Positions 1 to 13,326 of a stretch of DNA of 13,326 nucleotides are shown piece by piece. The notes below the pieces were generated by a model. It searched no databases. It had not been told where the DNA came from and saw only the letters and a program-made list of their open reading frames with translations. The stretch lies in UHGV virus genome UHGV-0203667. The stretch is one strand, 5' to 3'. Numbering within the stretch: the stretch's first letter is position 1; every line of letters starts with the position of its first letter. A program made the position numbers and the translations under genes. This DNA is from a virus.

Positions 1-531
1 ATGTTATTTCAGAAAGATAAAGAATCAGAAAACAAAAAGCTTTTTAAAGCAATAGTAAAAATGTTCTTTAAGGAGGCCGCACAGTTCGGGGCTACTATCC
101 TGCTTATTGGCCCTTGGGCAATGGCTATCTTCTTTTACCCTGCTACCTTATTTATTGGCAGTAGCAAGTTCGGCAATGGACCGTTTCATGTGGATACTGG
201 TTTTATAGATTTTCTCCTGATCCGCCCTATAAATGCTGTTCTCAATGCTTTCTACTTCCCCACTAGTCTGGAAGGGTGGGCGGTCACCTGGGGCGTTTTA
301 GGCTTAGCATTTGCAATATGGGTGATCGGCTTTTGGTGGAATGCGATCTGTGTTCTCCTTGATATCGATGGCGGAAAAAGCCGTAGAAGCGGTGGTAGCA
401 GTGGAGCAGGTATTTATGCACATGTAGGTACCAGGGGAGCTAGTGTTACCGCAGGTACCCGATTCGCTGGCGGCTGGCTGAGCATAGGCAAACGCGGCGT
501 TAGTTGGAGAAAAAGCAAAAAACTGTTCTGA
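1..531 (+). CDS. Predicted membrane protein with two hydrophobic segments and a Gly/Ser/Arg-rich basic C-terminal tail; possibly truncated at the window edge
   Basis: ORF of 176 aa starting at base 1; hydrophobic stretches (ATILLIGPWAMAIFFYPATLFIG; WAVTWGVLGLAFAIWVIGFWWNAICVLL); tail GGKSRRSGGSSGAGIY...; followed directly by an intrinsic terminator. No family recognised. Confidence 0.5.
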   Translation: MLFQKDKESENKKLFKAIVKMFFKEAAQFGATILLIGPWAMAIFFYPATLFIGSSKFGNGPFHVDTGFIDFLLIRPINAVLNAFYFPTSLEGWAVTWGVLGLAFAIWVIGFWWNAICVLLDIDGGKSRRSGGSSGAGIYAHVGTRGASVTAGTRFAGGWLSIGKRGVSWRKSKKLF

Positions 532-3065: not shown

Positions 3066-3141
3066 CATAGGGTAATTCTCATCATAGTGAATTTCCTTAA
3101 ACAAAAATGCGGGGGCTTGTCTTAAGTTCCCGTTTCTTTTT
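3066..3141 (+). ncRNA. Candidate ~75-nt small RNA or attenuated leader transcript, from P1 to the hairpin/U-tract at 3110-3141
   Basis: Strong promoter followed about 45 nt downstream by a 9-bp stem CGGGGGCUU / AAGUUCCCG (two G-U pairs) and UUUCUUUUU; no ORF in between. Confidence 0.3.
3110..3141 (+). terminator. Intrinsic terminator/attenuator in the leader upstream of the 3183 gene (also the likely 3' end of the small-peptide transcript)
   Basis: Stem 3110-3118 / 3124-3132, loop GUCUU, U-tract 3133-3141. Confidence 0.5.
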
Positions 3142-3182: not shown

Positions 3183-3398
3183 ATGGCAAGCAACGGACCG
3201 ACTAGCCCCCTGGTTAGCTGGACTACTGATGAGATCGTCGAAAACGTGCTCAGCGGCAAGTTTTATAAAAATTCTGTTTATGCTTTTATCCGTCGTAATA
3301 AAGGAAAATATCCACACATTGAAGCGGCAATTTTAGAACTGAACCGTCTTCGCCTTGAGCGTGAGCTGGCTAAATACACCAACAACATTGATAAATAA
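3183..3398 (+). CDS. Small hypothetical protein (71 aa), possibly regulatory
   Basis: SD AGGAGG at 3170-3175 with 7-nt spacing to ATG 3183; stop TAA 3396-3398; first gene after P1 and the attenuator. Confidence 0.75.
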   Translation: MASNGPTSPLVSWTTDEIVENVLSGKFYKNSVYAFIRRNKGKYPHIEAAILELNRLRLERELAKYTNNIDK

Positions 3399-3411
3399 TT
3401 ATGGGGGAACT

Positions 3412-4308
3412 ATGGCAAGTAATTACGGGGAGGTTTTTAATCCCCATTTCGAACGCCTCATTCAGTACACTTTTGATAAACCAGTAGCAACAACAATTGC
3501 TAATAAAAAGACTGGAAAAACAAAAGAGCGATTTAATTTAGACCTGATAGAGGTAACAATTTATGGAAAAATGGCAGGTTTTCATTTAAACGGGCAAGAA
3601 ATATTTATCTCAGAGCAGACCTTAGCAAAAATATGTGGTGTGAGTGATAGAAAAATCATCGAATCTATCAAAACTCTGGAAAATGCCGGGCTTATTTCTA
3701 AAGAAAGCCGGAAAGGTATGTCTAACATTTACAAACTGTTAATTACTCCTTCTCAAATCTGCAAAATGTGTGATGAACAGAAGATAGAACCAATGAGTAA
3801 TGCAGGTGGTGAAGATAAACAGCCTCAGGAAGCCCCAAAACAAGCCACACAGCAAGCTAAAAAGGCTAAAGTAGTGCAATTGCCTACCCAAGACACTAAA
3901 GCGCCTCAAATTAACGCTGTTAGTGACAAGCCACGCCGGGGCCGTCCTGTGAAAGATGTAACCGATGGGGGCTGGATTGTCCTGGGTGAGAGTGAAGCTA
4001 AAGATAGAATGCGCTCACTGTGGGAAAGCAAATACAAAGGTTTAAATAAACGTTGCCCGATCCGTTTGTCAAAGATTCAGGAGGATTTTTACACCACAGA
4101 GGAGGTAATACGCCATAAAGGCAATAGAGACGGTGAAATCTGGAAACCGGAAGAATACTGGCATTTAACCAGACCTGTTTTTATTTTTGCAAATAAACTT
4201 ATTGGGATGGGATTTGAAATATTGTTAGATCAAACTTACGGAGATTATCCTGAAATATTGTGGAGAAATGTTAGAAAGAATAAAAAAGGCATTTTAGAGT
4301 TTAGATAA
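3412..4308 (+). CDS. Winged-HTH DNA-binding protein with AT-hook-like linker (KPRRGRPVK) and a C-terminal domain of unknown function; putative replication initiator or regulator
   Basis: ATG 3412 after a GGGGG SD (the track's upstream TTG at 3355 has no RBS); N-terminal wHTH-like segment FISEQTLAKICGVSDRKIIESIKTLENAGLISKE; low-complexity linker EDKQPQEAPKQATQQAKKAK; 299 aa. Confidence 0.8.
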   Translation: MASNYGEVFNPHFERLIQYTFDKPVATTIANKKTGKTKERFNLDLIEVTIYGKMAGFHLNGQEIFISEQTLAKICGVSDRKIIESIKTLENAGLISKESRKGMSNIYKLLITPSQICKMCDEQKIEPMSNAGGEDKQPQEAPKQATQQAKKAKVVQLPTQDTKAPQINAVSDKPRRGRPVKDVTDGGWIVLGESEAKDRMRSLWESKYKGLNKRCPIRLSKIQEDFYTTEEVIRHKGNRDGEIWKPEEYWHLTRPVFIFANKLIGMGFEILLDQTYGDYPEILWRNVRKNKKGILEFR

Positions 4309-4349
4309 AAATACTGATAATCTTATTTTTTTGTTTAAGGAAATTTAAA

Positions 4350-4496
4350 ATGTATGGCGATTTTGATTATTACCTGGAAAAGGAAAAATATTTTGAAGAT
4401 GAACTATCACAACATTTTTCATATTGGGAAGAATATTGTGGTTGGTTAGCTGAAGATCCAGCAGATGAAGAAAATGATTCTGACATCCCTTATTAA
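4350..4496 (+). CDS. Small acidic, aromatic-rich protein (48 aa), hypothetical
   Basis: SD AAGGAA at 4337-4342 with 7-nt spacing to ATG 4350; MYGDFDYYLEKEKYFEDELSQHFSYWEEYCGWLAEDPADEENDSDIPY; below the track cutoff. Confidence 0.4.
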   Translation: MYGDFDYYLEKEKYFEDELSQHFSYWEEYCGWLAEDPADEENDSDIPY

Positions 4497-4587
4497 TATC
4501 CCCAAATAAACCAACAAACTACTAAATAAACTAATTACTAGAACTAGATTGATTGCCCTGATCTTTTAAACGTTCGGAGAATTAATC

Positions 4588-5076
4588 ATGTTCAAATCTG
4601 ATCTTTCTGATTCCCAATTTGAAAAACTGGTAGCACTGCAGAAATATCTCCCCAGTGATGATCAACCAACACGACAGGCCAAGCACTTATTAGTCGAGGG
4701 CTTTACCCCTGAATTCGTTGCGGAATACACAGGCGTTAAACTTGAGAAAGTCCAAAAACTATATGAAGAATCCTGGAATCCACGGTGTCGAGTTCCCCTC
4801 AGTGTCTATAACGAAATAGATAGAGATAGAAATGTCTTCGAAGATCGCCGCCGCAAATCTCTTTTAATGTGGAATTGCGGGATGAATATTGAAGAGATAG
4901 CAAAAGAATTAAAAGTAACCTGCTTTCATGTCTGGGGCTTGTTGAGCGACCTCCTGCCACGTAAGGAGCTTAATCAACGTTTGCCTAAGCCCGGTAGTCG
5001 TGCTTATCGCGAATTTATATTCATCTACCGCCGCCATAGAAATAAAGTCCAGAAAGCAATGGCCCAGAAAGCCTGA
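4588..5076 (+). CDS. Putative DNA-binding protein with two HTH-like segments (162 aa)
   Basis: SD GGAGA at 4576-4580, ATG 4588; HTH-like stretches LLVEGFTPEFVAEYTGVKLEKVQKLY and MWNCGMNIEEIAKELKVTCFHVWGLL; basic C-terminus. Confidence 0.75.
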   Translation: MFKSDLSDSQFEKLVALQKYLPSDDQPTRQAKHLLVEGFTPEFVAEYTGVKLEKVQKLYEESWNPRCRVPLSVYNEIDRDRNVFEDRRRKSLLMWNCGMNIEEIAKELKVTCFHVWGLLSDLLPRKELNQRLPKPGSRAYREFIFIYRRHRNKVQKAMAQKA

Positions 5077-5683: not shown

Positions 5684-6118
5684 ATGAATATTGAAGAAAT
5701 GATAGTTGAATTCGAAGAGGGTGATTTCCTGGAAGAAGGGGAGTTTAAATACTCCCGTTTTAAACAGGCGTTATTTAGCAGCGATGATAAACCCCACGTT
5801 AGTGATCTTAACGACGATGATTTATGTCGCTGGGTATGCACCCGCTTATATGAAGATGGAAAGTATACAGGCCAAAACTTTCCAAATCTCTATTTCAAAG
5901 CACAAACATTTGAGGAAGGGCAAAGAGTGAAAAACCTGGTCGATAAAATGCTGTCAGCCGGATATTTGCATAAAGAATTATTAAATCCTAAAGCTGAAAG
6001 CAAGCGCCATTATATTTTTGTGTGGTCTGTGGGGGATAAGTGCCCACTGCATGGGAGTCCTTCCAGGACCTTAGCTAAAGCTAAGCCCGTTGGGTCTGTT
6101 AAGCGTAAAGGCAAATGA
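5684..6118 (+). CDS. Hypothetical acidic protein (144 aa), positioned like a tail assembly chaperone
   Basis: GAGAGGG SD with 7-nt spacing to ATG 5684 (the track start at 5678 is only 1 nt from the SD); acidic N-terminus; ends with basic tail KRKGK; 2 genes upstream of the tape measure gene. Confidence 0.7.
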   Translation: MNIEEMIVEFEEGDFLEEGEFKYSRFKQALFSSDDKPHVSDLNDDDLCRWVCTRLYEDGKYTGQNFPNLYFKAQTFEEGQRVKNLVDKMLSAGYLHKELLNPKAESKRHYIFVWSVGDKCPLHGSPSRTLAKAKPVGSVKRKGK

Positions 6119-6119
6119 T

Positions 6120-6305
6120 ATGAATACCTACGAAAAGATTTATCAAAAATTAAAAAGTGATAACAATGCTCCCGTCATCAAGGGCGGGGCTTCTTCCTCT
6201 GGTGACCTCTCAATCGAAGAGCTTGCGGAGAAATATAATATTGATAAAGAGGCCCTGAAAAGGGCTATTTCATTATCAAAATCTTTAAGACAGGGCGAGG
6301 TGTAA
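6120..6305 (+). CDS. Small hypothetical protein (61 aa) immediately upstream of the tape measure gene
   Basis: ATG 6120 directly after the stop of the previous gene (TGA 6116-6118); its frame is open from 6075, overlapping the previous gene's 3' end; stop 6303-6305, 3 nt before the tape-measure ATG. Confidence 0.55.
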   Translation: MNTYEKIYQKLKSDNNAPVIKGGASSSGDLSIEELAEKYNIDKEALKRAISLSKSLRQGEV

Positions 6306-6308
6306 GAG

Positions 6309-8411
6309 ATGGCAATGAAGGAAGTCGCCAGACTAACAAACGTTATTTACTGGGACTCTGATAAATCCTCCTGGCGAAAAGAAGTTAAGCGCTTGGAGGA
6401 TTATAAAAAATCCTGGAAGAAAGCTACCGACGATATAGCTAAAGCGGATTTTAAATCTAATCAGGCTGTGCTCAGAACACAAAGAACACGCGCTAAGGTG
6501 GAAGAGCAGATCGCCAGAGCACAGAAGAAACAACGTGCTCAGGCTGTCAGCCGTCTGACCGGGGGCAATAATCCGGAGCTCTCCTCTATGCGCAAGTTCT
6601 ATCAGCAGCAAGCCAGAGAGGCCGCCAGACAACAAAAACTGTTAGATCGTAGTGTTGGAGATGTTCAGCACAGAAAAGCACGTGTAGGGGCCAACAGTGC
6701 ACGAATCAGCAGCATGTTTGATGGCTCCCTGGTTGCTCAGTTCCAATCCAGAATTCAAAGAGTTAATGCTGATTATGCTAAAGGGGCTATTAACCTGCAG
6801 ACCTATAATCAGAAAATGGCCCGACTCAGATCTGAAATGAAGATGGCAACAGCAGAGGCCGGAAAATTTCAGAGCAAACTGGATAGAGTTGCGATCACAG
6901 GATCTAAGCTGCATGACAACCTGGGGAAACTAAATTCTACTTTAGGCAAGATAGCTATTGGCCTTACTGCCGCTGGCTGGGGTGTTCAGCGTGCTGTTAG
7001 TGGTGCTATGGGTAGCCTTGCAGATCGCAACAGTGCCTACTTCGGTTTGATGGCACAGAACAAGGATGATAAAGCCAAGACTGATCAGCAGATGGCCTAC
7101 GTCAAAAGAATCTCTTATGACTACGGGATGGATCAGCGTGAGACCGAAGGCGGTTTTATGCGCTTTGCTGCAGCCACACCGAGCATAGAAGAGAAAGATA
7201 AACAGGCTCTTTTTGAGGCTATGGCTATTAAAGGTCGCTCAGTGGGTGCTACCGCAGACCAACAGAACAGGGCTATCGTTGCACTAGGGCAAATATATAG
7301 CAAGGGCGGTCGGGTGTATGCGGAAGAGCTTAAGGGCCAACTTTCTGAAGCCCTGGCAGGTTCTCAGGTAGATTTCACTAAGGCCGCTATCGATGCCGGA
7401 GTCATCAAGAAAGAGGAAGAATTTAATAAAGCCCTTGAAGATGGCAAGATCACCATGGATAAGCTTCTCCCTTCTTTGGTGAAAATCTGGTCTGCAGCCA
7501 AGAATACGAAAGCCTTTGCTGAATCCATGAAACAGCCAGAAGTAGCAATGCAGCGCATGAAAAACAGCTTTAACGAGCTGGCGATTCAGTTTATGGGTGT
7601 TGTGGATCCTGCCGATGGCGTTGTTAGCTTATCTGAATCTCTGATCTCCATCTTCGAAGACCTCACCACTGATATGGACGGCAGCGGGAGCGCGGCAAAA
7701 CAGTTTGGTGAAGCAGTCGGTGCTGCCATGCGGGAGATCATGTATTGGGTAGGCTTCGCTAAGGGATATATCGAGGTCAAGGCTAAAGAGTTCGGCATGA
7801 CCGGATCAGAGGTTGGCGAGCTTATCGGGAAACTAGTAGTCGGCTTAGCTGGTCTGAAAGTTATTACCACACTGCTTTCCCCTCTAACCGGATTTGTTTC
7901 ACTTGTCACCCAACTGATAGCCTTGTTAGGTAAAATCCCTGGTATGAGCAAGCTTATGGCATCTGCCTCAGGTGGAACGGCAACAGGAGCAGCAGTTATC
8001 AGTGCAGGCTCTAACGCTGAAAGAAGCTTCATTGATGGCAAGACGCAGGAAATGAGTAAGGAGAACTCAAAACAGGGTGCTTTGTTTGAGCTGGGAAGAT
8101 TTGTCAGCAATGCTGGCGCACTGTTCACACCTGGCGGTGATACTGGTCCTTTGTTCGATCAGGTCAAAGGCTGGTTTAATAAAGGGCCAACATTGACAGT
8201 AGACACTGGCATCAGACCAACACCAACGGGTGGCATAGCTATCCAGAATGGTGGATATCAACCAGTCCAAGTAAATGTAGCCCCACAAGGTGAGATTTCC
8301 GGCAAATGGGAGATAACCATCGATGAGGGGGGAATTGCCAGGGTGATCCAGAAGGAAGTCAGCGATCAGTTGGATTGGAAAGCCACACAGGAATCTAACC
8401 AGCTTTTCTAA
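6309..8411 (+). CDS. Phage tail tape measure protein (700 aa)
   Basis: SD GAGGTG with 7-nt spacing; charged coiled-coil-like N-terminus; motif ALGQIYSKGGRVYAEELKGQLSEALAGSQ, recalled as the conserved tape-measure motif; central hydrophobic segment (LIGKLVVGLAGLKVITTLLSPLTGFVSLVTQLIALLG); Gly-rich C-terminal part. Confidence 0.8.
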   Translation: MAMKEVARLTNVIYWDSDKSSWRKEVKRLEDYKKSWKKATDDIAKADFKSNQAVLRTQRTRAKVEEQIARAQKKQRAQAVSRLTGGNNPELSSMRKFYQQQAREAARQQKLLDRSVGDVQHRKARVGANSARISSMFDGSLVAQFQSRIQRVNADYAKGAINLQTYNQKMARLRSEMKMATAEAGKFQSKLDRVAITGSKLHDNLGKLNSTLGKIAIGLTAAGWGVQRAVSGAMGSLADRNSAYFGLMAQNKDDKAKTDQQMAYVKRISYDYGMDQRETEGGFMRFAAATPSIEEKDKQALFEAMAIKGRSVGATADQQNRAIVALGQIYSKGGRVYAEELKGQLSEALAGSQVDFTKAAIDAGVIKKEEEFNKALEDGKITMDKLLPSLVKIWSAAKNTKAFAESMKQPEVAMQRMKNSFNELAIQFMGVVDPADGVVSLSESLISIFEDLTTDMDGSGSAAKQFGEAVGAAMREIMYWVGFAKGYIEVKAKEFGMTGSEVGELIGKLVVGLAGLKVITTLLSPLTGFVSLVTQLIALLGKIPGMSKLMASASGGTATGAAVISAGSNAERSFIDGKTQEMSKENSKQGALFELGRFVSNAGALFTPGGDTGPLFDQVKGWFNKGPTLTVDTGIRPTPTGGIAIQNGGYQPVQVNVAPQGEISGKWEITIDEGGIARVIQKEVSDQLDWKATQESNQLF

Positions 8412-8423
8412 TATTGTGATCTA

Positions 8424-8439
8424 AATCAATAAGTTAGCC
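8424..8439. repeat. 16-bp direct repeat AAATCAATAAGTTAGC, copy 2 (copy 1 at 692-707)
   Basis: Exact match to 692-707; begins 13 nt after the tape-measure stop codon. Confidence 0.6.
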
Positions 8440-8462
8440 TGACCGGATAAACTCCAGGCAAG

Positions 8463-8493
8463 AAAAAAGCCCCTAAGTGTTAACAAAGGGGCT
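8463..8493 (-). terminator. Intrinsic terminator for the leftward head operon (AGCCCCT / 12-nt loop / AGGGGCT followed by UUUUUU on the minus strand)
   Basis: 7-bp stem 8468-8474 / 8487-8493; A6 on the plus strand (8463-8468) gives a U-tract on the minus-strand RNA; the plus-strand side lacks a U-tract. Confidence 0.55.
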
Positions 8494-8523
8494 CTTCTCC
8501 GGTATCCTTTTGATGCGGGGCAA

Positions 8524-8571
8524 AACCTGCTAACAAAAATCAACCTCTCGCGAGACTAATGTTAGCAGGTT
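8524..8571. repeat. Perfect 12-bp inverted repeat AACCTGCTAACA ... TGTTAGCAGGTT with 24-nt spacer containing palindrome TCTCGCGAGA
   Basis: Arms 8524-8535 and 8560-8571 are exact reverse complements; inner palindrome 8546-8555; the spacer carries a degenerate copy of the AAATCAAC(C/T)TCTCGC motif. Confidence 0.55.
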
Positions 8572-8913
8572 GCCGGAAGGTAAGTCAACTCCGGCCTATA
8601 AACCTTAAAGCGACTATAAAATTGCCCCGCCAATTGTGATGATCCGACCTTTGAGGCGGGTCCGGTGCCCAGGGGGTGCAGTGATGCACAAACCAGGCAA
8701 CGATAAACAGGCTAACAGTGATAGCGGCGCTCTCTCAGCGCACTAAATCCTAACCAGTCCGGGAAAGAGGCTGGCTCTATCGACCGCTCATGCACGGGAC
8801 AATGCATACCTGATAAAGGATTCTCACAAGGGACCAATCGCGAGAAAAGAAGTGGAAAGGGGCTGATTTGTGGTGTATCACTACGGCCTCAAAAGACACC
8901 CTATTGCCTTTTT

Positions 8914-9372
8914 TCAGCCTCTCCCCACATTTGACCAGTATTTGATTGCACCGATCAAATCATCATAGTGGCGCATTGCATCATTGAAGCCTTTATAGCT
9001 TGCCCATTGTGGGGAAACCTTGTTGTTGCTGAATTGCCCACTAATCAGGATAGTCTCCAGAATGTCGGCGTATCGCTTGCCAATTCGCTTCCTGACGGCC
9101 TCAGAGCTCCCACCCTTTACGATTGCATTAATCAGGGCTTTTGTGTGTCTCAGGCTCTCATAGAGCATTGCAGCGTGGGCAGATTCCATAAAGGAGCGCT
9201 TAGGCAGATCACCCCACCCCTCAGAATGAATTGCTGCCAATGTGGCGTAATTCAGGCCGCTATAGTGTTTCCCGTCATCCCAGCCAACCGCTACACCTTC
9301 CATCTGTGAGAGCTCTTTATGCAGCTTATCCATCATGCGCTTGTCTATGGTGCAACGGACTTTCGGACTCAT
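8914..9372 (-). CDS. Hypothetical phage virion morphogenesis / head-tail joining protein (152 aa); family not verified
   Basis: Last gene of the leftward structural operon; start ATG overlaps the stop of the upstream gene (ATGA), suggesting translational coupling. Confidence 0.7.
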   Translation of the reverse strand: MSPKVRCTIDKRMMDKLHKELSQMEGVAVGWDDGKHYSGLNYATLAAIHSEGWGDLPKRSFMESAHAAMLYESLRHTKALINAIVKGGSSEAVRKRIGKRYADILETILISGQFSNNKVSPQWASYKGFNDAMRHYDDLIGAIKYWSNVGRG

Positions 9373-11978: not shown

Positions 11979-12458
11979 TTGATCACCTGCGATTTAAATT
12001 AACTCCCCTCAAAGGGCTCAGGTATAACCTCTCAAACCACGACAGGCTCGGGCCGAAAAGTTATGCCGGAAATCTAAAGGGGGATTGATATAAGGAGAGG
12101 GAGATAGCCCCGCACCGTCCAAGCGGGGGCTATTCCATATGGGGAAAACCAACAACAGTTGGCTGATAGTTCACTGCATGGTTACGGTTGCTAGAGAGCA
12201 CTATCACGAAAGGCACTCCCCCGAATCAGTTCAGGCTGCGGTCACATCAGCGGGGAAATACCTTTCGGGATAGCTACCCACACCGAAAACCCGCAAAAGA
12301 AAACTGTGTGGATAACTAGCCCAATAGGAGAATTAATCGACCACTCTAAGATGATCAGGGTAGTGTTATTTATAAGGCGGCACCGCTACCTGGTCGCCGT
12401 TACTTTGGAGGAAAATACGGCAAATCACCTTCGCTAAATGATTCACGGTATACTGTAT

Positions 12459-12487
12459 ATTATATCAGTATTTACTCACATTGTCAA
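12459..12487 (-). promoter_or_regulatory. Consensus sigma70 promoter P2 for the leftward head operon: TTGACA, 17-bp spacer, TATAAT on the minus strand
   Basis: Minus-strand -35 is the complement of 12482-12487 and -10 the complement of 12459-12464; 22 of 29 positions identical to P1 (3031-3059); leaves a ~470-nt untranslated leader before ATG 11978. Confidence 0.6.
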
Positions 12488-12576
12488 CACCCTGATTATA
12501 TAAATTCTAATAATTAGCGTAGTAACGGTATTTTCAGACCTCTATCAATCCCATCAATACGTCACCTCATCCCTGA

Positions 12577-12622
12577 CCTGCTTTGCAGGCTTGGCACACA
12601 GCCAAGGTCGCAGCTATGCGAC
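12577..12622 (+). promoter_or_regulatory. Three-hairpin element copy 2 (CCTGC-ttt-GCAGG; CTTGGC-acaca-GCCAAG; GTCGCA-gcta-TGCGAC)
   Basis: Same three-stem architecture as 5117-5159; stem 2 differs by A>G paired with T>C, stem 3 by C>T paired with G>A; loop GCTA conserved. Confidence 0.5.
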
Positions 12623-12629
12623 TCCTATC

Positions 12630-12660
12630 ATCTATCATAACTTTTTCATTCGTGATAGAT
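12630..12660. promoter_or_regulatory. 8-bp inverted repeat ATCTATCA / 15-nt spacer / TGATAGAT, candidate operator
   Basis: Arms 12630-12637 and 12653-12660; lies between the three-hairpin element and the small rightward genes; ATCAAT repeats nearby (12544-12558, 12671-12682). Confidence 0.3.
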
Positions 12661-12757
12661 ATCTTTTGATCAATATCAATGTTTTCCTGGGATTTGCCCG
12701 GCTATAGTTCGAATCAAGGAAGGGGAGCATTGATAGCACCAAAACCGAACAAACAAA

Positions 12758-12772
12758 TCAACTTCTCGCAAA
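12758..12772 (+). promoter_or_regulatory. Conserved leader motif TCAACTTCTCGCAAA directly 5' of the SD of the 12784 gene (identical copy at 13301-13315)
   Basis: 15-nt exact repeat; both copies are followed by an SD-like sequence (AAAGGTGA / AAAGGGG); the TCTCGCAAA core also lies in the P1 spacer (3038-3046). Confidence 0.45.
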
Positions 12773-12783
12773 AGGTGATAGTT

Positions 12784-12906
12784 ATGGGTATCAAGAACAG
12801 TGCCAGCGCATGGCAAAAGGCCAGGTTTCATCACCCACACATTGTTAAGGCAATTGAGGTGGTTGGAGTGTTAGCCCTGATGTTAGCTCTGTGTGTGGAG
12901 GTGTGA
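12784..12906 (+). CDS. Small peptide (40 aa) with hydrophobic C-terminal segment, predicted membrane peptide
   Basis: SD AGGTGA at 12772-12777, 6-nt spacing to ATG 12784; MGIKNSASAWQKARFHHPHIVKAIEVVGVLALMLALCVEV; the track ORF starts earlier (12679) but has no RBS there. Confidence 0.45.
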   Translation: MGIKNSASAWQKARFHHPHIVKAIEVVGVLALMLALCVEV

Positions 12907-13008
12907 GATGGGCAAAGGAGGCAAAGCATTTTTTAATAGGTCTGGCTATCCTGGATGTTCTACTAATCATGATTGAGCGGAGTTTATGAACAGCATTGAG
13001 AGGAGTTT

Positions 13009-13269
13009 ATGACGGGGGCTAAAGATATCAGGAGACTGAGGGAAGAGCTGATAGCTGAAATTAAAGCTAAGGCAAAGCAAATGGAGATAGCCGCGCAAAT
13101 GGATGTAGCGGAACAGATGTACAAGATGGTTGAAGAGGGAACACCACGACAGGTTATCGCTAAAACCTTCGGTGTGGGGATCGCCACCGTGCACAGAAGG
13201 CTGAAAGCCTATGCCGACTACCACAACATTGAGAGAGGGGAGGATGGGAGATTTAAGAAGAATAAATAG
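13009..13269 (+). CDS. Small DNA-binding protein (86 aa): coiled-coil-like N-terminus plus C-terminal HTH of the Hin/resolvase or sigma region-4 type (TPRQVIAKTFGVGIATVHRRLK)
   Basis: SD GAGAGGAG before ATG 13009; preceded by a tandem-duplicated RBS-ATG unit and an 8-codon upstream ORF whose stop overlaps the start (ATGA). Confidence 0.75.
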   Translation: MTGAKDIRRLREELIAEIKAKAKQMEIAAQMDVAEQMYKMVEEGTPRQVIAKTFGVGIATVHRRLKAYADYHNIERGEDGRFKKNK

Positions 13270-13300
13270 TAGGAACAGTCCAACAGGTTATTAACTAAAT

Positions 13301-13315
13301 TCAACTTCTCGCAAA
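13301..13315 (+). promoter_or_regulatory. Second copy of leader motif TCAACTTCTCGCAAA followed by SD-like AAAGGGG; downstream gene start lies beyond the window
   Basis: Exact 15-nt match to 12758-12772, 32 nt after the stop of the 13009 gene. Confidence 0.4.
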
Positions 13316-13326
13316 GGGGTACCGTC

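Follow-up and report, generated by a model that had tools for sequence, protein, structure and literature searches.

A conserved, probably structured RNA with a candidate antisense seed at the 3' end of the head operon of a phage-satellite-like plasmid of Escherichia coli

Between the tape-measure gene (6309-8411, plus strand) and the neck/tail-completion-like gene that converges with it (8914-9372, minus strand; the last gene of the head operon) lie some 500 bases without any ORF longer than 41 aa on either strand. The question raised by this locus is whether positions 8412-8913 hold a number of unrelated hairpins, a site that acts as DNA, a small protein gene or one functional RNA, and, in the last case, from which strand the RNA would be made and on what it would act. 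The first-pass annotation had described the region as free of ORFs and dense in hairpins at the point where two operons converge, and this description stands, the ORFs that can be found there being 23-41 aa long. Our comparison of related sequences suggests that the region most likely encodes, on the strand of the head operon, one structured RNA of ~430 nt (~8893 to 8462) and not a set of unrelated hairpins. All positions are those of the window, that is, the whole stretch of 13,326 nt that was analysed.

The window is a complete circular E. coli plasmid of 13.3 kb whose genes include capsid, Dit-like, neck-like and tape-measure genes. No match to a terminase or portal family was found among the plasmid ORFs examined. 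A variable cargo gene (1-531, plus strand; the element being circular, its ATG is position 1) and genes for small HTH proteins (13009-13269 and 6090-6305) are also present, and PADLOC and Pfam assign no function to the cargo alleles or to the small ORFs. Carriers are few (7 of 5426 complete genomes of E. coli); E. coli strain 190 (NZ_CP020521) and E275a are examples. A literature search on these 13-kb plasmids found no paper, and they have the look of a plasmid-borne phage satellite of E. coli not yet described. With proteins of the 140-150-kb rV5/PhiTE-like myophages the neck-like protein shares 40-48% identity; its other homologues P0009, P0015, P0018, P0023 and P0068 belong to ordinary PhiTE/rV5-like phage modules from which the element is absent, and were rejected as relatives. 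One 39.6-kb record contains three matching places, is roughly three unit lengths long and may be a trimer, which suggests that multimer forms exist.

Across 8 complete relatives, the stretch 8401-8900 is 98.0-98.6% identical and forms five successive 100-nt windows at an identity of at least 0.98, whereas the rest of the plasmid never has more than two such windows in a row and most coding windows of the plasmid score lower. The ORF-free ~500 bases are the best-conserved part of the plasmid and its longest near-invariant stretch; if our reading is correct, the single most conserved feature of the plasmid would be an RNA and not a protein. Based on conservation, on homologues in two diverged versions (L016 and L019) and on a fold z of -7.05, we place the conserved structured core at 8462-8893 (minus strand, read from 8893 to 8462). 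The leader between the neck stop codon and the first long-range helix (8894-8913, minus strand), which contains a AGACAATAG-like motif, is the sole intergenic part to vary from one close relative to another. A search for a paralogue elsewhere on the plasmid found none.

In both L016 and L019 the element is kept between the neck gene and the tape-measure gene. The L016 neck protein is 50% identical to that of the window and its noncoding element ~70% identical; the genes flanking the L019 element are ~97% identical and the element itself can not be aligned by blastn, yet its motifs and helices are kept. The L019 element appears as a cassette swapped between otherwise near-identical elements. 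The two versions carry additional sequence between the neck gene and the element, so that read-through from the head operon is not assured there; in L019 an opposite-strand ORF lies within this sequence, and the reverse complement of the AGACAATAG-like leader motif forms the -35 of a promoter for an inserted 49-aa ORF. Elements of the L016 or L019 type were found neither in complete E. coli genomes nor in PLSDB, and a protein search with the L016 tape-measure fragment matched only itself. Contigs of the L016 type, 14-15 kb long, encode HGX8664196.1, HFD2972648.1 and MCT6149949.1. The covariation described below has to be read as coming from only three independent sequence types (window, L016 and L019) and few events.

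Two nested long-range helices, with strands ~160-235 nt apart, can be drawn on the minus strand. Helix A pairs UUUGAGGC (8886-8893) with GCCUCAAA (8650-8657), and in L019 it reads GAUGC/GCAUC, a double compensatory change; AGGC/GCCU was considered as an alternative partner and rejected because L019 breaks this pairing and compensates that with GCCUCAAA. Helix B pairs UAGUGAU (8877-8883) with AUCACUG (8716-8722), and becomes UGAUGGU/ACCAUCG in L016 and UGUUGGU/ACCAACG in L019, which gives three covarying positions (one with three pair types) and one invariant U-G pair. The alignment of its 3' strand is unambiguous because it is flanked by the motif GCCUGUUUAUC (8702-8712, minus strand), identical in all versions. 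Helices A and B together are 97.8% paired, compared with 33-58% when the partner strand is slid, and have four pairs changed on both sides, compared with 0-1 when slid. A second motif, UUUAUCAGGUA (8807-8817, minus strand), is identical in all three versions. A 5'-3' closing helix taken from the minimum-free-energy fold of the window is lost in L016 and L019 and was rejected.

Several local hairpins on the same strand are also conserved. The stem of AUGCAU-loop-GUGCAU (8790-8807) is kept in L016 with a different loop, and its terminal U-G pair exists in the minus sense only. The hairpin with the conserved CUCUUUCCC loop (8754-8774) has four compensatory changes, its stem being CCAG/CUGG in the window, CAAG/CUUG in CP134895 and CUUAU/AUAAG in L016, so that compensation is seen even between close relatives. 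The hairpin at 8573-8594 displays a UUGACUU loop that is the same in all three versions on stems that differ (CCGGAG/UUCCGG in the window, CCGC/GCGG in L016 and AGAGAG/CUCUCU in L019). The last one (8526-8569), with a stem of 10-12 bp, carries in its loop the sequence that we discuss below as a seed; L016 has the stem CUGUUAG/CUAACAG with compensatory changes, and L019 lacks the hairpin, its seed adjoining the terminator. The 3' hairpins are 96% paired, compared with 36-57% when slid.

Not all hairpins listed at first reading belong to this conserved set. The perfect 12-bp inverted repeat was located exactly at 8524-8535/8560-8571, and GCCGGA/TCCGGC (8572-8595) and GCGC-tctctca-GCGC (8727-8741) are where they had been reported. 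The hairpin CCCGCC/GGCGGG exists but spans 8626-8660 instead of 8629-8658, and GTGCA-gtga-TGCAC lies at 8676-8689 instead of 8669-8682; the GNRA-type loop ascribed to the latter is present in the plus-strand reading only, the minus strand having UCAC. CCCGCC/GGCGGG, which overlaps the 3' strand of helix A and is not kept in L016 or L019, is specific to the plasmid lineage, as are GTGCA/TGCAC and GCGC/GCGC, all three being absent or not kept in the diverged relatives. The latter two form part of lineage-specific insert hairpins at 8668-8741 on the minus strand (8668-8697 with the inner GUGCA/UGCAC, and 8727-8741) that are absent from L016; there, the L013 and TC/AA differences sit in loops, and the G-to-A change of L018 affects the 3' side of the inner hairpin's stem. 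Compensation has kept the main inverted repeats, and covariance across homologous loci, which had been named as a check, was found in the two long-range helices and several hairpins.

The strand is indicated by an intrinsic terminator at 8463-8493 (minus strand; stem 8468-8493, U-run 8463-8468). It reads AGCCCCU-loop-AGGGGCU and then UUUUUU on the minus strand, as expected of a GC-rich hairpin with a U-run, and a simple terminator scan missed it because its loop is 12 nt. This hairpin had been placed correctly and taken for a bidirectional terminator, which does not hold, the six-T run being on the minus strand only and the plus strand reading TCTTCTCC. Stem and minus-strand U-run are kept in L016 and L019, and in all three versions this is the only U-run intrinsic terminator, on the head-operon strand, in agreement with the earlier view that the head operon ends at the far side of the region. 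No intervening terminator was found in the window between the neck stop (8914) and 8493-8463. Since the sole minus-strand U-run terminator lies beyond the element, the RNA most likely forms the 3' end of the transcript of the head operon, and its location between a same-strand stop codon and a shared mRNA terminator is that of a 3'-UTR-derived sRNA. Folding is stronger than expected by chance and also differs by strand, with a fold z of -5.8 to -7.05 for the minus strand and -3.3 to -3.8 for the plus strand. Read in the minus sense the stems have 10 G-U pairs and 5 mismatches, and read in the plus sense they have 2 G-U pairs and 13 mismatches; the fold z of the L016 and L019 elements is weak. 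The earlier proposal of a long structured 3' UTR or an independent ncRNA gains from the terminator position, the covarying stems and the two long-range helices, and we consider a functional structured RNA on the minus strand probable.

Two promoters could serve such an RNA. A consensus sigma-70 promoter (TTGACA-17-TATAAT with TG, 12/12) lies upstream of the head operon at 12459-12487 (minus strand); it is conserved in 9 of 9 plasmids, has the equivalent TTGACT-17-TATAAT in L016, and is where transcription of the head operon, and of the RNA by read-through, would start. A possible internal promoter on the minus strand (TTGACT at 8588-8583, TGcTAACAT ending at 8559) would use the UUGACUU loop as its -35. 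The scan for it passes in the window (TTGACT-18-TGcTAACAT) and in L016 (TTGACT-16-TGtTAGTAT) and fails in L019, where there is no acceptable -10; no convincing dedicated promoter for the element was found in L016 and L019.

What the first reading did not include is a complementarity between the loop of the 12-bp repeat and the translation-initiation regions of two genes that lie elsewhere on the plasmid. The putative antisense seed GCGAGAGGUUGAUUU (8537-8551, minus strand) matches 12755-12769 over 15 nt with one G-U pair and 13301-13312 over 12 nt. The first proposed target, AAAUCAACUUCUCGC (12755-12769, plus strand), lies 14 nt upstream of the ATG at 12784 of an unannotated 40-aa peptide (12784-12906, plus strand) that is hydrophobic at its C-terminus (AIEVVGVLALMLALCVEV), is intact in 9 of 9 plasmids and has no match to a Pfam family. 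The second, UCAACUUCUCGC (13301-13312, plus strand), lies 14 nt upstream of the cargo ATG at position 1, and an identical leader stands ahead of three unrelated cargo alleles. With no more than two G-U pairs allowed, the RNA has no longer complementarity to any other part of the plasmid than this one to 12755-12769; taken alone it is only marginal, a run as long as 15 nt being reached somewhere in the plasmid by 7% of shuffled RNAs, and the same test with unlimited G-U pairs was uninformative.

The repetition of the motif adds to this complementarity. Exactly three plus-strand copies of TCAACYTCTCGC are present against 0.10 expected (three were reached in 0 of 200 shuffles), and their positions are shared by all complete relatives and by L019. 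Two of them lie 14 nt before start codons, independent of the cargo allele, and the third is inside the element, where the minus-strand RNA bears its complement. In L019 the seed matches the targets without a single mispair, its sequence being conserved even though the hairpin is lost. The L016 seed differs from that of the window (GGUUAUCG); if L016-type leaders were to read GAUAACCUCUCGCG-like, seed-target covariation would follow. By prediction, the seed is moderately accessible in the window and in L016 (78th-84th percentile) and poorly accessible in L019 (14th percentile). A GATAAACAGGC copy within the tape-measure gene was considered as a second target and rejected as a chance match that is not conserved, and the extra GCCUGUUUAUC copy in that gene is taken for chance on the same ground. 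A scan of IMG/VR with a 16-mer target motif gave 19 matches, unrelated and due to chance. All three motif copies are on one DNA strand, which is equally compatible with a repeated protein-binding site.

In the mechanism that we propose, the transcript would have its 5' end at the 12487-12459 promoter, read the head operon and end at the 8463 terminator, with a shorter species possibly initiated at the internal TTGACT promoter or released by processing. A 5' domain of ~240 nt would be closed by the nested helices A and B and leave the invariant UUUAUCAGGUA and GCCUGUUUAUC single-stranded; it would be followed by a 3' module in the order UUGACUU hairpin, seed GCGAGAGGUUGAUUU (in a hairpin loop or adjoining the terminator) and terminator. 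In the cell the seed would act in trans, by pairing with the identical leader sequences that immediately precede the Shine-Dalgarno sequences of the two plus-strand genes, and this pairing would lower the translation or stability of the mRNAs of the 40-aa peptide and the cargo gene. We give this whole reading, a trans-antisense regulator embedded in a 3' UTR and joined to a large 5' domain, a probability of about 50%; the antisense action of the seed, taken by itself, is put forward tentatively, and if true it would provide a directly testable seed-target pair. It is more speculative, and in our opinion rather unlikely, that the 5' domain, here counted as ~330 nt, represents a new class of large structured RNA specific to phage-satellite-like plasmids. 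It would then sense or bind, for example, a factor of the host or of a helper phage, and thereby gate the seed or the fate of the head-operon transcript and couple a life-cycle switch to infection.

The same position between the last stop codon and the terminator, the strong thermodynamic structure and the marginal value of the seed match by itself would also suit a structured 3' UTR acting only in cis, which protects the head-operon mRNA from 3' exonucleases or tunes termination, the leader complementarity being a duplication leftover without function in trans. However, a simple stabiliser needs no invariant single-stranded motifs or compensated nested long-range helices, the seed is retained in L019 despite the loss of its hairpin, and the element is more conserved than the genes that it would serve; we regard this explanation as unlikely.

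A site acting as DNA is less probable still. The region could hold a TCAACYTCTCGC operator for a small HTH protein, two of which are encoded at the positions given above, or a pac/cos, partition or resolution site used in mobilisation by a helper phage. The three motif copies on the same strand agree with the former, an element without a terminase gene would require a packaging signal, and the possible trimer suggests multimers. Duplex sites keep their sequence, though, and here the stems change yet stay complementary with strands far apart, and the motif is asymmetric and keeps a fixed distance of 14 nt to two start codons within an operon, as would be expected of a function at the level of RNA. 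The pac/cos or partition site suggested by the first-pass annotation is not borne out: blastn (word size 11) with 8300-9000 as the query found nothing similar in 50,697 phage records, the plasmid has neither ParA/ParB nor recombinase genes, and conservation follows base-pairing and not sequence.

We think it quite improbable that a plus-strand transcript, from tape-measure read-through or a start near 8515, serves as a sense decoy for a leader-binding factor. It would carry the motif copy in the sense orientation, the plus strand is also structured (z ~-3.5), and a GTGA-to-GCGA difference retains the GNRA loop when read in this sense; at 8480-8508 the plus strand also has a weak site resembling a promoter. 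Such a transcript would meet the terminator hairpin before the element, though, and relatives add plus-strand terminators right behind the tape-measure stop. The far end has no plus-strand terminator, the G-U pairs turn into A-C mismatches, and the ATG of the 26-aa ORF behind the element's motif copy is missing from L016 and L019. Unannotated small protein genes can be practically dismissed, because, besides the short ORFs of the window and a 75-aa ORF called across part of the L016 element but not conserved (the 49-aa ORF of L019 sits outside the conserved core), no ORF is common to the three versions, near-identical relatives show frame-breaking single-base length changes in A, G and T runs, and conservation tracks the helices without codon periodicity.

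Returning to the minus-strand RNA, we compared it with known families. Rfam cmscan of the window, L016, L019 and L009 gave nothing at gathering scores, and at E up to 10 on 8350-8980 there was no C4 match; the weak sub-threshold matches were all terminator-driven and on the minus strand. No tRNA or tmRNA genes were found in the region. A scan of IMG/VR and GTDB genomes for two conserved RNA motifs gave 0 matches, protein-guided scans of both gave 0 relatives, and a metagenome scan recovered only near-identical loci and L019.

P4 is a phage-related mobile element that can live as a plasmid and makes an untranslated RNA from a longer transcript, and seqA and seqC are the two sites to which this CI RNA is complementary and with which it pairs (PMC4825925). 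The plasmid RNA resembles P4 CI and the C4 RNAs of P1 and P7 (Rfam C4) in having a short stretch complementary to two leader sites of the element's own genes, a likeness that is a functional analogy only. The mature RNAs of the C4/CI family are released by processing (RNase P/PNPase) and act on immunity. The plasmid RNA matches neither the Rfam C4 model nor any other Rfam family, is ~six times longer than CI, and ends an operon of structural genes, ~4.2 kb away from its targets and on the other strand. Because the target sites precede start codons by 14 nt, control of translation is suggested and not premature termination. If our reading is true, this would be a second, independent case after P4 of RNA-based control in a satellite.

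Among the enterobacterial sRNAs of the Hfq type that derive from 3' UTRs are CpxQ, SroC, DapZ and MicL, of 50-110 nt; in the Miyakoshi-Chao-Vogel classification, those with an internal promoter are type I and those released by processing, such as RNase E cleavage, are type II. Binding to a chaperone (Hfq/ProQ) and regulation of targets in trans are further marks of this group. The plasmid element is like them in its location between a stop codon and an intrinsic terminator, in a seed near a long U-tail and in a possible internal promoter, and differs in that the seed module is preceded by a conserved domain of ~330 nt with long-range helices. Type I toxin-antitoxin systems with non-overlapping antisense RNAs include TisB/IstR-1, ShoB/OhsC and DinQ/AgrB. 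Here the likeness is in the candidate target, a 40-aa peptide with a hydrophobic C-terminal helix, and in the putative antisense pairing upstream of the ribosome-binding site (15 nt, one G-U, ending 14 nt before the ATG). In contrast to these systems, the genes for the RNA and the peptide do not lie side by side, and a further candidate target, the cargo gene, is unrelated to the first; the weak OhsC match (E = 2.7) is due to the terminator alone. Compared with GOLLD and ROOL, the plasmid RNA matches no Rfam model and has a narrow distribution (the 7 of 5426 complete E. coli genomes). As a sizeable structured RNA without a known family, it is a candidate for RNA-family libraries and for searches in other satellites, and it is similar to GOLLD and ROOL in its length of hundreds of nucleotides, its nested long-range helices and conserved loops, and its place on a phage-related element.

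The region at 8412-8913, on which both flanking operons converge, contains no ORF longer than 41 aa, and its predicted fold is far more stable than that of shuffled sequence on the minus strand (z = -5.8 to -7.05) and less markedly so on the plus strand (z = -3.3 to -3.8). The first-pass annotation, which had described an ORF-free, hairpin-dense region between convergent operons, thus recognized something real and far from chance. When 8 complete relatives were aligned to the window and identity was scored per 100-nt window, the five consecutive windows covering 8401-8900 gave values of 0.980-0.986, and no near-invariant stretch elsewhere in the plasmid is as long; most coding windows are less conserved, with values down to 0.71-0.81 in the middle of the tape-measure gene. 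Close relatives differ at only a few places in the region: by substitutions in loops (GTGA/GCGA, TCTCTCA/TCAATCA), by changes in run length that would disrupt any reading frame and by one double change that preserves a stem (CCAG/CUGG to CAAG/CUUG). Since the 20 nt adjoining the neck stop codon are variable again, the conserved core begins at approximately 8893. At the opposite edge, four relatives (L010, L011, L012 and L013) carry an insertion of about 50 nt with three small hairpins directly after the tape-measure stop codon (8411); in the CP134895 insertion two stems are entirely changed in sequence with pairing kept (GAGTTCTACTC to AGCTTTCAGCT and CCTGCATAGCAGG to CCCTCTTCGGAGGG). These insertions are probably dedicated plus-strand terminators, which the window is missing.

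Our evidence is entirely comparative and draws on three independent sequence types: the window and two diverged versions of the element, L016 and L019. L016 is a 5.6-kb ENA metagenome contig with the gene order of the window, a neck protein 50% identical and an intergenic element approximately 70% identical that is without two blocks of the window's element, the GCGC hairpin and the GTGCA hairpin; the cluster that its neck protein falls into has further members from E. coli assemblies. In L019 the flanking genes are about 97% identical to those of the window and the intergenic element gives no blastn alignment to it, yet the two share the motifs AGACAAUAG, UUUAUCAGGUA and GCCUGUUUAUC, and L019 keeps the hairpin presenting UUGACUU, the sequence GCGAGAAGUUGA and a terminator with its U-run on the same strand. 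The element therefore behaves like a cassette: it can be exchanged, and its architecture is conserved. L019 also has, inserted at 4475-4687 between the neck gene and the element, an additional ORF of 49 aa, rich in lysine and arginine, that reads in the opposite direction to the neck gene and has its own promoter (TTGTCT-17-TATAAT) and its own terminator; the -35 of this promoter equals the reverse complement of AGACAATAG, a motif that every version keeps at the 5' edge of its element.

RNAalifold analysis of the three versions identified two nested long-range helices, read in the minus sense. Helix A pairs 8886-8893 with 8650-8657 (UUUGAGGC/GCCUCAAA in the window, GAUGC/GCAUC in L019) and helix B pairs 8877-8883 with 8716-8722 (UAGUGAU/AUCACUG in the window, UGAUGGU/ACCAUCG in L016 and UGUUGGU/ACCAACG in L019). 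The alignment is unambiguous here because both strands of each helix directly adjoin invariant anchors. Across the two helices 97.8% of the cells are paired, versus 33-58% after a shift of the 3' strand by 1-3 columns, and four pairs have changed on both sides, versus 0-1 in these shifted controls. Local hairpins follow the same pattern: four compensatory changes are seen in the CUCUUUCCC-loop hairpin (8754-8774), the hairpin at 8573-8594 presents its one UUGACUU loop on three unrelated stems, the hairpin of the 12-bp repeat (8526-8569) covaries between the window and L016, and the terminator hairpin also covaries. Pairing that is kept while the sequence is free is the pattern of a structured single strand and not of duplex protein-binding sites. 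All of the hairpins listed in the first-pass annotation exist, two of them a few bases away from where it had placed them, and one, CCCGCC/GGCGGG, is lineage-specific, competes with helix A and is not retained in the other versions. Inside helix B the three versions' minimum-energy predictions of the fold disagree. The 3' strand of helix B (AUCACUG, 8716-8722) is duplicated at 8679-8685, inside the inserted GUGCA hairpin of the window's lineage. The only two substitutions seen in this duplicate, AUCGCUG in L013 and AUCACUA in L018, would each leave it able to pair with helix B's 5' strand, and the L018 change breaks the local hairpin; two single-sequence changes give only a hint of an alternative pairing between 8679-8685 and that strand.

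Three lines favour the minus strand as the functional one. At 8468-8493, the terminator hairpin is followed by a U-run on the minus strand, an orientation conserved across versions, and by UCUUCUCC on the plus strand; it is therefore mainly a minus-strand terminator and not the bidirectional one that it had looked like. The minus sense gives 10 G-U pairs and 5 mismatches and the plus sense 2 and 13, a count that is biased because the helices were defined in the minus sense. Lastly, the strand gap in the fold z-score is clear in the window, small in L016 and absent in L019. With the terminator orientation and the covarying helices, the earlier reading of a 3' UTR or ncRNA proves essentially right. 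The head operon has upstream of it a sigma-70 promoter that agrees with the consensus at 12 of 12 positions and has an extended -10 (TTGACA-17-TATAAT with TG; 12487-12459, minus strand) that is conserved in 9/9 plasmids, and L016 has TTGACT-17-TATAAT at the equivalent place. Nothing terminator-like was found between the neck stop codon and the element in the window, and the RNA is therefore most simply explained by read-through. Within the element, a promoter-like site whose -35 is the UUGACUU loop passes the promoter scan in the window and L016 and fails in L019; it would give a species of 60-95 nt. A LexA-box-like palindrome, TACTGTATATTATATCAGTA (12451-12470), overlaps the head-operon promoter; its CTG half-site is intact in only 4/9 plasmids and SOS control would therefore be strain-dependent.

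The window is a complete circular element of 13,326 bases. Eight E. coli plasmids (13.2-13.7 kb) align to it end to end, including across the junction of its ends, and the carriers amount to 7 of 5426 complete E. coli genomes, in each case as a plasmid. A ninth record, NZ_CP043822.1 (39,610 bp), matches in three places at roughly three unit lengths and may be a head-to-tail trimer, which would be either an artefact of assembly or a genuine multimer relevant to headful packaging. Genes of the plasmid include one for a replication-initiator-like HTH protein (3355-4308), the plus-strand tape-measure gene (6309-8411) and three minus-strand genes, for a neck/tail-completion-like protein (8914-9372), a major capsid protein and a Dit-like protein. 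No terminase or portal family was matched among the larger ORFs run against PHROGs and Pfam, and the relatives have no such gene annotated. Myophages of the rV5/PhiTE-like kind (140-150 kb) encode homologues of the neck-like protein at 40-48% identity, in a position between the adaptor and head-closure genes, and for this reason the plasmid looks like a plasmid-borne phage satellite; a literature search found no published description of it. Nearly 30% of the plasmid is non-coding, made up of 532-2900, 12000-12750 and the region studied here. No gene is annotated in any relative within 532-2900 (approximately 2.3 kb), of which about 600-1800 is 92-97% conserved and 1800-2300 is hypervariable and indel-rich; iteron-like 11-bp tandem repeats (TATTTATCCCC x4.6) lie at 561-611 and 23-bp repeats at 2256-2321. 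Immediately after the replication-initiator-like gene, 4300-4600 has 29-32% GC, and a 25-nt inverted repeat (3083-3107 / 4328-4352, 88% complementary) flanks this gene on both sides. These features mark the likely replication origin, and consequently no origin role is needed for 8412-8913. The suggestion of a pac/cos or partition site in 8412-8913 is unsupported.

A repeat search found the plus-strand loop sequence of the 12-bp repeat (8537-8557) again at 12755-12775 and 13298-13318. Its core, TCAACYTCTCGC, occurs exactly 3 times in the window versus 0.10 expected (0/200 shuffles reach three), and L019 and all the complete relatives likewise have it three times, at matching positions. Both distal copies end 14 nt upstream of start codons. 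The first precedes an unannotated 40-aa ORF (12784-12906, MGIKNSASAWQKARFHHPHIVKAIEVVGVLALMLALCVEV) with a hydrophobic C-terminus, intact in 9/9 plasmids; the second precedes a cargo gene starting at position 1 (1-531), a slot that holds at least three unrelated alleles (MLFQKDKES..., MNIKTIIAA..., MFKGLVVT...) behind an identical leader in the window, L009, L012, L013, L015 and L019. The cargo alleles have no match in PADLOC and no clear Pfam family. Behind the first copy lies a second small ORF that is also unannotated (12908-12990 in the window); it reads as a hydrophobic 26-aa peptide in L019, and in the window an additional T in a T-run shifts its frame.

Because the plus-strand loop carries a motif copy, the minus-strand RNA carries GCGAGAGGUUGAUUU (8537-8551), a candidate seed complementary to the first leader (12755-12769) over 15 nt with one G-U and to the second (13301-13312) over 12 nt. 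This is the longest complementarity between the RNA and the rest of the plasmid with at most 2 G-U pairs. A run as long is found somewhere in 7% of shuffles; what argues for the putative seed is not its length but its position, repetition and conservation. In L019 the seed (GCGAGAAGUUGA) matches the targets by perfect complementarity and immediately precedes the terminator; in L016 its 3' end is different, and the 5.6-kb contig does not contain the targets. For the window and L016 the seed is predicted to be moderately accessible, for L019 poorly so. In the short species from the internal promoter-like site the seed would stand at the 5' end. The three copies could also be a repeated protein site, as they all lie on one DNA strand, but their fixed distance to start codons inside an operon and their asymmetry point to the RNA level.

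Taken on this comparative evidence, the feature is a previously unannotated structured RNA of no known family, for which an antisense function is plausible. The head-operon transcript would end in a folded RNA of about 430 nt, whose seed, in the 3' module, would pair a short way upstream of the Shine-Dalgarno sequences of two genes, the one for the hydrophobic peptide and the cargo gene, presumably preventing ribosome loading or bringing on decay. For the large 5' domain, roles in stability, in processing or in binding a host or helper factor are all possible, and the fact that L019 has it replaced in cassette fashion is a hint of specificity of some kind. The CI RNA of P4 pairs with seqA and seqC (PMC4825925), and it is in the proposed mode of action that our element resembles this RNA, the sRNAs derived from 3' UTRs and the type I antitoxins; neither sequence nor structure supports membership in any of the three.
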